A stretch of DNA of 61,415 nt, the filler included, from Basidioascus undulatus (Eukaryota): assembly GCA_000826855.1 (NCBI GenBank). It is 11 parts of 11 records of this genome, joined end to end, with 100 filler letters (N's around TTAATTAATTAA, not from the genome) between each part and the next. Parts side by side here need not be neighbours in the genome. Positions count along the whole stretch, not along the records: positions 54,156 to 57,735 come from JTLS01002378.1; 10 more parts are not named here. The stretch is one strand, 5' to 3'. Made by a program: the position numbers and the translations under genes. Positions 16,147 to 59,225 of this stretch are shown in pieces (positions within the stretch are counted from its first letter, which is position 1; each line of letters starts with the position of its first letter). Below the pieces are notes generated by a model. That model did no database searches and was not told the origin of the DNA. It was given only the letters and a program-made list of their open reading frames with translations.

Positions 16147-18149
16147 GCTTGATATGGCGGTAAAAGGGGAGGGAACAAGTGGGGCGGAGGGGCAAGGAAG
16201 AGGGAAGACGGCACGTCGCCCCAGCGCCAGCGGCAACGCGCCGACACGCTCGTGAGATAGTCTTACGTGGCCATACCCTGGCCTGTTCCTTCTTTTCGAG
16301 CGGACCGCCAGATCCATGGGTGGGACAATGTTGTATCGTTATTGACAAAGGAATATCCATAATCTTTACATGTGGTCAGATTAAGAGTCAACTTGGGGAC
16401 GTTCGCAGTTTCCGGCAGTAAACGCTGGCCTGCATTCGATGGCCCCTGGCACACATCTATCTAATGCGTCGAGTCAACCCCTTCTTGCATTCTAGTCAAG
16501 AAGAAAGGGACTGAGGTGTTTTAATTGCACTCCCACTATTTCCGGGCTTTGAGGACTGGTAAGAAACCCTCTATTCGAGGCGGTCGGCAACCTCAATACC
16601 GTCGTTTAAGCACCGCTGCAGCCTCTACATCGAAACTTTCGTGATATTCGGCTATTTGAAGCCTATTGGTGTCCAATTCGGCTCATTGACAATGAATCAA
16701 AGACAGGTTCACGAAGAATAAGCGTCCACGGGCGCTGCAGTGTGTTACGCAGCAAACCAGCGTTATTGATTGGAAGTGGGTAAAAGCTGCAGGAAGGTGC
16801 TGCACCGTTGCGCCCCTGGCGGCAGCAAAACTGCTTGAACCGTGAATCCAACACGGGGCGGGTCGAATTCGAATGGCAACGACCCAGGTTACGACTACCC
16901 CACCCAAGCTTCATTAACCTATTCGCTTCTTTATCTTGTGATGGGAACGTGAAACCATCATGCGTTCCGCTCATGACATGACCACGCCAGAAAGACTTCC
17001 TGCGACAACTCAGTCAATGTGGGTCAGGAGTCGACCTAAGTATTTGCTTCATAACATACGATTGATTCTTGCGGTTCACATTGGTCTCGCCCAATGTGCT
17101 TGCAAGCGCACCGCCCCTTGTTCGTACGTTTGCAGTAGTAGGTGCGCTCCCGGCTGTGCAAATGATTTGTGATATATACAGTTTCTTGAAGGTGGGCAGT
17201 CTTATTTGTGAGCCCATACGCTTCTGTGATCATAGTAAGAAATCTTTTAGACTGTGTCAGCGACGTCGAAGCGGTGTAAGTTCACGTTCACGTACGTTCA
17301 TGCTGGGAGCTCACTACGTAAGACATGACTTCGTCGCTCACCACCCCTTGATGCTCAACCTCCAACCAACCGTCCCTTTCTCTCCTCCCCATTTATCTGT
17401 TTCTCCTCTTCCTTCTACTCACCACAGCTCACGCTCATCACGCTCGAAACCAATCTGCTTTCCTTCGGCAGACGATCCTCAACCCTCTCCTCTCTCCCGC
17501 TTCTCATCATTCACTCCCGCTGCGCTTGGCTCGCTCACTTCGCTAGACTATGTTTCAACCTTCACACAGCGGGACCATTGCTCTGGGATCGAGGTACGAT
17601 CAAGGTGTGTTCACTCCTTTTTCTTTCTGACTCGGAACGGCATTTGACTCGCCTGGGCGCTGGTCGTCCGGCTCGGCAGAATGGAAGTGCGACCAATGTG
17701 CGTTTAGTCCCTCATCATGTCAATGGTTAGGGGCGATCTGGAACGTAGCTGACTGGGATGGATCACCTGTGAATACAGCCACCTCAGCATCTTCTCTACG
17801 CCGCTCGCCTCTCCCCTCGTGTGGGCGACACACTGACTCGTTTCAGTCCAGCCGTCTGCAATGGGTGCGCTCCGAGTACTCTTCCGTCCATTGCCGCGCA
17901 GGCTGAGGTGGCGGCCTCAGGACTCTTTTCACGCTCTTCGCTCCTACTTGCCATTCCCGCCTCCAACCTTGGCTGCTCGTCCGGACGCACAGCATCTAGC
18001 TCTCATCATTTGTGCGTCGTTCACTTCACGTTCGCGCTAGTCTGTGGTTTCTTTCTCACTGCTTTCCTCCCTGCATTCGGACCCCATCCGCCCACTCCGT
18101 CGTCCTTCTCCTCTATCAATTCACTGTAACCCCAGTACACATTCATTCA

Positions 18150-49083: not shown

Positions 49084-49156
49084 GCCTCGCTAGCTCAATC
49101 GGTAGAGCGTGAGACTCTTAATCTCAAGGCTGCGGGTTCGACCCCCGCGTGGGGCT
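49084..49156 (+). tRNA. tRNA-Lys(CTT), intronless
   Basis: Acceptor GCCTCGC/GTGGGGC, D stem GCTC/GAGC, anticodon arm TGAGA-CT-CTT-AA-TCTCA and T arm GCGGG-TTCGACC-CCCGC. Confidence 0.97.
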
Positions 49157-49409
49157 TCTGTTTTGCCACCGTCTGCCAAGCGCACTCAACCACGAACGGT
49201 CTTCCGTGTTTCTCTTTTTTTTTAAAAAAAAAAAAAATCTCTTCATGCAAGGAAAATCCGGACCCAGATATATTCCAATGTTGTATTGCTATGCGAAGAC
49301 TATTCTAGCCGTCACAGCCAGACATCCCGCTTCCCCGGCTTGTCTCTCGACCGCCATTGATCCTTCACTACTCATCCTCCTCACCAACGGCTTCACGTGA
49401 TGTTTTTTA

Positions 49410-55794: not shown

Positions 55795-56642
55795 CGTTAA
55801 GGATGATTAACACGACCAAATTCAAGAAGGATGAGCAGAGTAAAAGCTGGTCTGATCAGGAGCAGATGAATCTGGGGGGTCGAGGACCCGTAGAAGGTAC
55901 ATGCGCTAAGCGGCGCGAGGGGCCCAGGGCAGCACCGTAGGGGCTCCTCAGCCTCAGCTCCTCCTGACAGGAAGCGGACATGGCCCTGATTATCGCATCC
56001 TTTCAAAACTGTACATTTTTCCTCGGAATAAATGGTACTCAGATATCACACTGAATCTTTTTACAAGGCACGCGGAAACCGCAGGGACACGGGCGGGCGG
56101 GCGGTCACACGAGCAGCAGTTCCGCCTCCGGGTCCCAGTGTCGGATCCGTGCTTGATCATGTCATGGGCTCGCGGGAGTTAAAGGGGCGGAAAACTCGGG
56201 TTCTATTTGGTCGTATATCGGTATACTTTCCATGGGATACTGACAGAGGACGCAAGGTCAGTTGGCAGTCATGCATGCATGTGCAAAGCCCATATGGCTT
56301 TCTTGATGACTGCCATCCCTCCGGAAGCTGCGCATTGAGACATTGATTCGGACCAAAGCCCTCCCAGTCTCCCTATCCAAAAAGAATGGGCTGGATCCCA
56401 TCCCTCTAGCACATCCTGCTGGCGAAGGTACACAACATTCCATGTAGTCTTCACCTTCGACGCTGGATGGGACAGATCCATGGCAGGCCTCCCGTGCGCA
56501 TCTTGGGGGAAGCACCACGGGCCACCGAGGTTTTAGCAGATCACCCATCTCGGACACTGGAGCAAACATTTGGTAAAAGTTGGTAAAAGAGAGCAGTAGG
56601 GTACACCATAGCGCCCAAAGAAGCAAACAAGTCTGTACAAGC

Positions 56643-56647
56643 AAAAA
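56643..56647 (-). terminator. Pol III T5 terminator of the permuted tRNA
   Basis: TTTTT on the minus strand, 5 nt after A37 of the 5' half. Confidence 0.7.
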
Positions 56648-56652
56648 GACAG

Positions 56653-56732
56653 TACGAGTGGCGCGCTCTACCACTGAGCTAAAGGGGCAATTCAAATGCC
56701 CCCTGGCTGGATTGAACAACCGACCTCACCAT
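56653..56732 (-). tRNA. Circularly permuted tRNA-Thr(CGT): 3' half (56732-56697), 8-nt spacer, 5' half (56688-56653)
   Basis: The minus strand reads ATGGTGAGGTCGGTTGTTCAATCCAGCCAGGGGGCA-tttgaatt-GCCCCTTTAGCTCAGTGGTAGAGCGCGCCACTCGTA. Swapping the halves gives a complete 72-nt cloverleaf with every stem paired. Confidence 0.85.
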
Positions 56733-57735
56733 TTCGTTGCCATCCGGTTATTAGACCAGACGAAAAGCAGATGTAGCTTAACTTTCATGAATACGGGACT
56801 CAGCAAAGAAACGTTCCCGGCATCGCCACAAAAAAAACCACAAGAGATTACACTTAAGATTCCAACACAATGAACCAAATCCGCTTCCGCTTATATATCC
56901 CTGGGGTTGAGAGCGGCGCGAATGTCCCAGTGCCAACTAGCCCAGAGCAGGGAAAACGGGAGGGAAACTGCACAGATTTGTCGCTCAAATGCACTTTTGT
57001 ATTCCGCTAACAGTACTGGCACATGATCAAGGAGAGTGAATTTTAGTTAGTGCTGTCTTCCACGAGCAGGGCCGGGCAGGCAGATTCTGTCAACACTTGT
57101 TCCACCTCTCTCCATGTGTCCCTTAAACAAACTTGAGACCCTTGTAACTTTCAATAAACTTGAGTTGAAGGGACCCCCAGTCACAGCGCAGCCGGTGCAG
57201 TCATGCGTTCAATAAAGTGACTTGCCCTTTCTATAAGGCTCAAAGCTCATGACATACATACCTTACTTACTCATATTTGTACATACTTTATACTCATACA
57301 TACCTTGTGAGATGTATCCTCATATATGAGGCAGAGCCTCATAGTATGAGGAAGTATATGCCGTTTCACTGGCAGAACAAGACCAGTAGCTGTTCCAGTG
57401 TGCCACAACATTCTGTTCTATGTTCATAACTTCCCCTTTAATGTCTGAAGCCCACAAAATTGGTGACTCAATATGTGCAGTGTGGCTGAACAGTCAACAG
57501 TCACAATGGTGCTATCAACACGAAACTTGCAAGTCCACTGTCAGCGTCAAGTGGCTTGACAGCTTGACCCCAAAGTGCATCAAGTACTTAACCTCTCAAA
57601 GCGGTACTCTGGGAGGTGTCATATTGGTAGACTGGGCTAGAGGAAGTAAAGGAGGTGTCATGAACGTCTTAACAAACATTCAATCCTCGACAACTGTCAA
57701 ACCTTGCCACCTCATTTTACGCTCTCACCCTTTCC

Positions 57736-58342: not shown

Positions 58343-59225
58343 TGCCCCGCTGGGGGCACTGGCTTTTTTGGCAGCTGAGTGATGCGTGCGTACGCCAGGC
58401 TGTTTGTAGAGGATGGCACCCGAGCGCTGTTTACGGTGTAAGCGACGTTCGGGAGCGCTGGGCGCGCTCGATCTGCTTCTTGCGCGGCCGCAAAACGTGC
58501 AGTCGCATCGACGTCAATTTCCGAAGCGGCCTCGAACGCGAGCGCAGATACAGTTCCAGCGACGTAGGGAGGCGTAACCTCCTGAATGCCCGTCCGCTTC
58601 GCGCTGATCGTCCGCACGCTTTACTCACTCGAGGCTCCCCGATGACCACACTCTAGCAACGCTTTCGGCCCGTCACCTACATGTCCTTCCATAATCTGAA
58701 CGGCATAAGGCTGGCCTTTGTAAATATGTCAATAAATAAATAAATAAAAAACATCGCGGAAATGAGCTTCAGGACTCAGAAATCTGATTATCTTCCGTTT
58801 GGCTCGTTACCGGGTGACTGCGACCTTGACCTTTCACGGTTTACGCGGCAATGTGACACTAAGGCAGTAATTTAAGCTTCAAAAGTATCCTTCGTCTGAA
58901 TGTCGATAGGTCTATACCAGCGTTTAGACTCCCAACGATCCCTATCATGGCTGACAGAGCTCGCGTCTTCTAACTTTTCCTCATCCTTCGCTTAAAATTT
59001 CAACATCACGGGGAACTTTTGATCTCTGGAGAACGGATTGTGACGTATCTCTTAATAATCCTGGTTGTTTGCGCGGGCAGGCGTCGAACCGAGACCATTT
59101 CACACCCGCGCAAACTCGGGACGCTGACCTCTCCTCAGCACCATCATTCCCAGCTTCTGCCGGACCATCAGCCCTTTCGAGCTGAACAAACCGCACATAC
59201 CTGTCCTATAAGCTCTGCGCTGATT

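Follow-up and report, generated by a model that had tools for sequence, protein, structure and literature searches.

How could a tRNA gene be read if its two halves stood in reversed order along the DNA? The question is raised by a locus on record JTLS01002378.1 of the fungus Basidioascus undulatus (assembly GCA_000826855.1), which lies within the window analysed here, a stretch of 61,415 bases, filler included, made of 11 joined parts of this genome. Sequence inspection places the 3′ half of a tRNA-Thr(CGU) upstream of its 5′ half, on the same strand and with an 8-nt spacer between the two. Checked by coordinates, the layout is exactly the one that the original prediction had given, including the spacer, the trailer CTGTC, and the T5 run (Table 1). 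The break was likewise correctly placed at 37/38, the halves running from G1 to A37 and from A38 to the discriminator, with 36 nt each. CCA is absent from the gene, as in the type II permuted tRNA genes of algae. This anatomy fits that of a type II (37/38) circularly permuted tRNA gene.

Table 1. Elements of the permuted tRNA-Thr(CGU) locus, in the order in which they stand along the minus strand (positions are those of the window).
Element	Position	Strand	Remarks
Leader hairpin, 7-bp stem and 6-nt loop	56742..56761	-	From the predicted fold; opens the 29-nt leader that recurs at another locus
Leader end GGCAACGAA	56733..56741	-	From the MFE fold; the predicted 3′ cut site follows its final A
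3′ half of tRNA-Thr(CGU), 36 nt	56697..56732	-	A38 to discriminator A; 3′ strand of the anticodon stem, variable loop, T arm, 3′ strand of the acceptor stem
B box within the 3′ half	56718-56708	-	Inside the T arm
Spacer TTTGAATT, 8 nt	56689..56696	-	Loop closing the acceptor stem; without a T-run of at least 4 (longest T3)
5′ half of tRNA-Thr(CGU), 36 nt	56653..56688	-	G1-A37; 5′ strand of the acceptor stem, D arm, 5′ strand of the anticodon stem, C32 to A37, anticodon CGT
A box within the 5′ half	56681-56671	-	Inside the D arm
Trailer CTGTC	56648..56652	-	The predicted 5′ cut site precedes it; common to other loci
T5 run	56643..56647	-	Likely RNA polymerase III terminator; 5 nt past A37

When the halves are joined by coordinates in a script, ARAGORN identifies the product as a tRNA-Thr(cgt) of 72 nt. 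Each of its four stems is formed by Watson-Crick or G-U pairs, its D and T loops are of the standard type, and the conserved residues are present, which confirms the paired stems and intact invariant residues claimed earlier. Read as linear DNA in its native order, the locus gives no ARAGORN call, and default ARAGORN together with Rfam at gathering thresholds return from the whole window only a tRNA-Lys(CTT) at 49084-49156. A covariance model made from four ordinary intronless fungal Thr(CGT) genes (filters off, E-values rough) matches the two halves separately and in permuted order, with 29.7 bits each and E about 3e-6. Each 36-mer half occurs once in the 61,415-base window when up to three mismatches are allowed, for an expectation of 0 in 100 shuffles.

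The 19 matches to this model listed at E ≤ 10 include no other Thr-like half in the window, and the remaining ones with E < 0.5 are the tRNA-Lys (55.1 bits) and a Gly-like gene (21.2 bits). This agrees with the earlier statement that the contig has neither another 5′ half upstream nor another 3′ half downstream, as the search covered, on the minus strand, 4.7 kb of upstream and 56.6 kb of downstream sequence. Further permuted halves, which had been suggested as a target, were searched for in the window with ARAGORN in circular mode on 150-nt sliding pieces, and no permuted tRNA besides the Thr(CGT) locus was found. A second candidate from that search, at about 59017-59113, was rejected as an artefact that uses the same letters twice. 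The Gly-like gene (tRNA-Gly(GCC)-like, 16832-16909, minus strand) has a 7-nt intron and an unusual T loop, with G at the expected C56. It is detected by ARAGORN only with introns allowed, is absent from the Rfam gathering list, and may be a pseudogene or an odd tRNA.

The reversed order could have been created by the assembly, if paralogous tRNA copies were misjoined and the permuted order existed nowhere in the genome. The halves are indeed repeated, which leaves graph paths ambiguous at k=31. Contigs made from the raw reads of three sequencing data sets bear on this: X1, which is possibly the source of the assembly, X2, which comes from another study (2014), and X3, from the sample of X1. 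At 90% likeness or more, 34 pieces of X1, 24 of X2, and 0 of X3 were placed on 56200-57200; such contigs prove presence and cannot prove absence, some records having been filtered out and a part of the rows being listed. No differing letters, indels, or joints are listed for the X1 and X2 placements on 56200-57200. One X1 contig of 60 nt (56666-56725), without a differing letter, covers the spacer together with 23 nt of the 5′ half and 29 nt of the 3′ half. Its depth is 53.7, with flanks at 48.2 and 54.8, hence the reads carry the permuted junction at single-copy depth. A second 60-nt X1 contig of the same span has a depth of 48.9 and one differing letter, probably at 56696, the first letter of the spacer. 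The presence of two such single-copy contigs points to two loci bearing the junction. The unique flanks of X2 stop at 56666 and 56707, as in X1, and show no differences, with 30 of 30 bins covered, while none of the 16 X2 pieces listed crosses the junction. The support from X2 is therefore less full, and the best support, that of X1, possibly comes from the assembly's own source. Nevertheless, the junction contig of X1 and the matching flanks of X2 together make an artefact unlikely, and we consider it very improbable.

The same contigs reveal that the locus has relatives. With copy number estimated as contig depth over unique-flank depth, the last 7 nt of the spacer and 34 nt of the 5′ half lie in one X1 contig of depth 175 (about 3.4 copies), and CGAA with the entire 3′ half in another of depth 302 (about 6 copies). 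The corresponding X2 contigs hold the end of the 5′ half with 13 nt of the trailer (depth 56.7, about 3 copies) and GGCAnCGAA with the start of the 3′ half (one differing letter, depth 93.8, about 5 copies). Longer contigs lead out of the repeated part. One of 16,486 nt in X1 (16,191 nt in X2) starts in the 5′ half, has the trailer in common to 56637 with two differing letters, and continues; a 3,552-nt X2 contig has the 5′ half and CTGTC and is divergent afterwards. At the other end, the last part of a contig of 3,694 nt in X1 (2,240 nt in X2) is the 29-nt leader and the start of the 3′ half; the contig matches 56712/56713-56761 with three differing letters and diverges beyond 56761. Because repeats break the contigs, no 3′ half is seen for kilobases past a 5′ half, nor a 5′ half for kilobases before a 3′ half. 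In total, seven contigs of X1 and six of X2 leave the 5′ half or the trailer, at 56637, 56640, 56648, 56649, or 56653, and the loose end of each comprises at least 255 unrelated letters. Contig depths and ends indicate that the genome contains roughly six to eight related loci.

The conservation among these loci is very uneven along the unit. The halves agree letter for letter in about 3 to 6 copies, and the leader and trailer are nearly identical, while the surroundings have drifted. Past 56637 a likeness to the window persists in the largest class, where by eye about 19 of 25 letters agree once an offset of 3 letters is allowed for, but consensus agreement among the contigs there is about 0.6, and nothing is alike beyond 56761. 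Identical halves within drifted flanks are what a gene family under constraint would show, and not what decaying debris would. A run of T4-T5 is found within 13 nt of A37 in every trailer class listed (consensus rows read by eye). The window copy itself seems to carry the minority letter at leader position −5, to judge from the contig ends, which speaks against its being a working gene. Among the rows listed at 90% likeness or more, no contig of X1 or X2 contains the ordinary A37-A38 joint, contigs showing presence only.

Outside this species the ordinary order prevails. A scan of metagenomes with a 20-nt word from the anticodon arm gave 28 Thr(CGT) loci, all 28 in ordinary order; 12 of them are intronless and 16 have an intron of 7-31 nt at 37/38. 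A pattern written for the permuted junction, in which 15-45 free letters separate the T arm from the D arm and anticodon arm, has 0 matches in the metagenomes, and the end of the 5′ half followed by CTGT has 0 in prokaryote genome contigs and 0 in viral contigs. Since all the metagenome loci are ordinary, the permuted layout appears to be lineage-specific. The rejoined tRNA was compared over 72 positions with 26 of the 28 loci, L002 and L022 being left out because their 5′ end is cut. The nearest three (L011, L012, and L021) differ from it at 2 of 72 positions, which pair with each other in the acceptor stem (C-G here, G-U there), so that no uncompensated change has accumulated. The other loci compared show 3-11 differences, except for L015, which has 20 owing to an insert. 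In this locus (L015:585-713) the 5′ strand of the T stem is split by 55 nt (634-688) that start with GTGTGT, end with CAG, and have CTAAC 14 nt from the end, and thus look like a spliceosomal-type intron. Once the insert is removed by script, L015 gives a perfect 73-nt cloverleaf, whereas its native order gives none.

The introns of the ordinary genes suggest where the leader and trailer come from. By manual reading, 10 of the 16 introns have G at −3, as the leader does, and the 10-nt intron of L028 resembles the leader end. The leader and trailer therefore look like the two ends of an ancestral intron. This likeness is what one would also expect of a dead remnant, left as a 3′ exon, an inter-gene spacer, and a 5′ exon when a tandem pair of intron-bearing Thr(CGT) genes lost its outer halves, and later copied by DNA duplication, silent or useless, with an unseen ordinary copy doing the decoding. 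The promoter boxes in the wrong order and the lack of a permuted relative outside the species (among the 28 metagenome loci and with the junction pattern) also fit a remnant of this kind, and the latter, as an absence of conservation, also counts against a working gene. However, the usual marks of a pseudogene are not seen. There is no uncompensated change in the halves, no ordinary copy among the contigs, and no significant trace of the outer halves in the 200-nt flanks, where 9 of 10 and 11 of 13 letters agree in the best local alignments and 159 and 115 of 1000 shuffles do as well. One candidate trace, the leader as a decayed 5′ half, was rejected: the model aligned the leader end to the anticodon arm with about 7 of 14 letters alike, which is accounted for by the complementarity of the leader to the CG-centred anticodon without invoking homology. 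The related loci, with identical halves, T-runs after all the trailer classes listed, and no downstream 3′ half, favour function over a dead remnant. The lack of an A37-A38 contig also favours function, although as presence-only data it is weak negative evidence. We thus regard the remnant as unlikely, without being negligible, and rather favour the view that the locus is a working gene and belongs to a small family of such circularly permuted tRNA-Thr(CGU) genes in this filamentous fungus. For the stronger claim that all tRNA-Thr(CGU) genes of the host are permuted, at some six to eight loci and without any ordinary copy, the chances seem to us evenly balanced.

A working gene of this type would have to be spliced at 37/38, and the predicted fold of its transcript bears on how. 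The 118-nt putative precursor (56761-56644) has an MFE of −42.7 kcal/mol, its MFE structure being the same as the centroid, while shuffles of it give −33.7 ± 3.4 kcal/mol (z −2.66; 3 of 200 fold as well). The fold consists of the leader hairpin and a complete cloverleaf, the acceptor stem of which is capped by the spacer loop. At the predicted junction, GGCA of the leader and UGUC of the trailer form 4 bp, followed by a 2-nt bulge made of A37 and the first C of the trailer. The leader ACGA then pairs with U33-U36 (ACGA:UCGU, 4 bp), and a 1×2 loop of C32 on one side and A-1 and A38 on the other comes after it. Both cut sites flank the central 4-bp helix, which corresponds to a relaxed bulge-helix-bulge (BHB) geometry, the bulges being of 2 nt in this single-sequence fold as compared with 3 nt in a strict BHB. 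As an alternative to the MFE pairing, the leader G at −3 is able to pair with C32. This would be an anticodon-intron pair, a feature that eukaryotic endonucleases use according to a portion of PMC3978253. In the modelled structure, the pairing of leader and trailer around the break favours function over a dead remnant, but it could also be mere inheritance from the ancestral intron.

Transcription is the weakest point in reading the locus as a working gene, as the boxes are reversed and there is no clear TATA. The B box comes first, 37 nt upstream of the A box, which is the reverse of the ordinary order. Upstream of the 3′ half there is a TAATAA at −21 to −16 and no clear TATA-like element within 50 bp. 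Farther away, about 170 nt upstream of the 3′ half (56831-56907, minus strand), there is a TATATAA, followed by a T8 run before the tRNA unit; it probably serves a neighbouring gene as a Pol II promoter element and lies outside the tRNA unit. The leader hairpin region (56742-56761) also holds TGGTCTA, which corresponds to the first half of an A-box-like word and precedes the B box by 40 nt. We set it aside as a substitute A box, since it is without the GG part and has a T4 run just upstream; at most it is a weak and speculative lead. The ordinary tRNA-Lys gene of the window is itself without an upstream TATA, hence the host fungus probably relies on TFIIIC. This gene has a T4 run 5 nt past its end, and some 55 nt past it, at 49208-49238, stand nine T directly followed by about fifteen A.

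If initiation were directed by the A box only, the product would be the 5′ half alone, which speaks against a working gene. It would fit an expressed but non-decoding locus, whether as a source of short 5′-half transcripts stopping at T5, as a tRNA-like RNA, or as a small SINE-like mobile repeat. With initiation in the spacer, the A box and the T5 run 36 nt later form a complete minimal unit, and the unit of about 125 nt recurs at several loci. The order of modules is also mirrored by a weak match to YrlA, the bacterial Y RNA-like family (Rfam RF02553), in a search of 801 bases (21.4 bits, E 0.072). The locus resembles YrlA in having a T arm, a capped acceptor-like stem, a D arm, and paired ends. 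But this score is far under the gathering score of 69, which led us to reject the identity, and, unlike YrlA, the locus has a complete anticodon arm that is the one of a real tRNA-Thr, intact and with the same sequence as in ordinary Thr(CGT) genes. Moreover, the 3′ half and the leader are no less well preserved than the 5′ half, and a 5′-half product would not need them. A tRNA-derived SINE was rejected as well. SINE heads have the A box before the B box and are degenerate, whereas here the B box comes first, the halves are perfect and identical between copies, and the unit is only about 125 nt long. The similarity between loci continues past T5, which argues against copying via a Pol III transcript. 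A non-decoding product is therefore improbable in our judgement, less so than an assembly artefact but more so than a dead remnant.

As a working gene, the locus would be expressed as follows, transcription, every processing step, and decoding being what we infer for it. RNA polymerase III would produce a single transcript of about 118 nt, with the leader, the 3′ half, the spacer, the 5′ half, and the trailer, ending in T5. The body of this transcript would fold as a normal tRNA, its acceptor stem closed by the spacer loop, and the leader and trailer would pair mutually and with the anticodon, so that the two ends would be placed where a 37/38 intron would sit. The tRNA splicing endonuclease (Sen2/34/15/54) could then cut after A37 and before A38, and the ligase Trl1 could join A37 to A38. 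RNase P and tRNase Z would excise the spacer from the acceptor end, after which CCA would be added. Fungal tRNA ends are matured in the nucleus, ahead of cytoplasmic splicing. As a result, end-processing possibly comes first in fungi, and the intermediate may be a base-paired two-piece RNA with no circle, in contrast to the circle of algae. The functional permuted gene that had been proposed is thus supported in part by the type II anatomy, the leader/trailer pairing, and the identical halves at several loci, while the order of processing assigned to it, drawn from algae, may differ in a fungus. The family itself would probably have originated from a tandem pair of intron-bearing genes that lost their outer halves.

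This origin can be put beside what the ordinary genes and artificial constructs look like. The exons of the ordinary fungal Thr(CGT) genes differ from the rejoined halves by 2-11 positions in 72, and those with an intron have it at the same 37/38 site, with G at −3 (in 10 of the 16) and with an ACG stretch in the 3′ part of the intron that pairs with the anticodon as the one of the leader does. Unlike in these genes, the exons are inverted here and the "intron" is open, its 5′ part ending in the terminator and its 3′ part beginning from the leader. In artificial transcripts, the 3′ half of one copy together with the next copy's 5′ half can take the fold of a permuted pre-tRNA. By analogy, such folding between tandem copies is a likely origin of the locus. 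The difference is that those transcripts are cut by an archaeal enzyme, and that at the present locus the outer halves appear to be gone from the genome.

Permuted tRNA genes are also said to occur in an archaeon, Thermofilum pendens, as reportedly described by Chan and colleagues in 2011. The Thermofilum genes share with the fungal locus the permuted order and a BHB-type junction. They differ in the position of the junction (59/60, in the T loop), in having CCA encoded, and in relying on an archaeal endonuclease and promoter.

Among eukaryotes, the closest parallels are in algae. The relevant passages of PMC3978253, PMC4033280, PMC13578239, and PMC8450103 ascribe permuted tRNA genes to a red alga, to some green algae, to the nucleomorphs of chlorarachniophytes, and to Thermofilum. 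Type II genes are attributed in sections of PMC3978253 and PMC4033280 to the prasinophytes Ostreococcus and Micromonas, to Cyanidioschyzon merolae, and to the nucleomorph of Bigelowiella natans (Soma et al. 2007, Maruyama et al. 2010). The range of intervening sequences given in a portion of the first of these sources is 1-74 nt, and the same portion describes C. merolae as being without recognisable TFIIIC subunits and Sen15 (PMC3978253). Like the algal type II genes, the fungal one has a short spacer (8 nt), a break at 37/38, a leader and trailer predicted to pair around it, a T-stretch that follows the 5′ half while the spacer has none, and no encoded CCA. Unlike them, it stands in a fungal (opisthokont) host and has no clear TATA-like element within 50 bp upstream, whereas C. 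merolae has one within about 50 bp. The host very probably uses TFIIIC and A and B boxes, which are reversed here, and the bulges are of 2 nt. Furthermore, the whole isoacceptor family seems to be permuted, at several loci and with a shared 29-nt leader that contains a hairpin.

A search of full-text literature found no permuted tRNA gene in a fungus. The passages concerned name red and green algae, nucleomorphs, and Thermofilum only, in keeping with the original prediction, which knew of no fungal report. If true, the locus would be the first fungal, and the first opisthokont, case of such a gene, as far as could be found in this literature. Permuted genes have often been discussed as relics or tied to unusual splicing or transcription machinery, as in C. 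merolae. A working family in this fungus would mean that the layout can arise recently and by an independent origin, in a genetically tractable kind of organism. It would also mean that a fungus with a standard four-subunit Sen, Trl1, and TFIIIC-type transcription makes an essential tRNA from permuted genes, and that RNA polymerase III transcribes a unit in which the B box is ahead of the A box. Such a family would provide a tractable system for studying the birth of permuted genes from tandem intron-bearing genes. As standard tRNA finders report nothing at the locus, a genome of this kind would seem to be without tRNA-Thr(CGU).

The demand for this tRNA can be estimated from the coding sequences of the window. 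Counted over eight long open frames, none of them validated as a gene, ACG is used more often than any other Thr codon (65 of 168), in line with the earlier remark that ACG codons are common here. A tRNA with the anticodon CGU should therefore be in demand. One of these frames, which encodes a PPR protein, has ACG at 15 of its 37 Thr codons. PPR is also the only result of Pfam on seven long frames of the window. The Atlas clusters nearest to this protein are mostly from Ascomycota, and two of the three best are named as the complex I assembly factor CIA84. The tRNA locus sits in a stretch of lower G+C of about 1.5 kb, with an MRS2-like gene (minus strand) on one side. The gene on the other side is on the plus strand and shows a weak, below-cutoff match to the C-terminal domain of GCIP.
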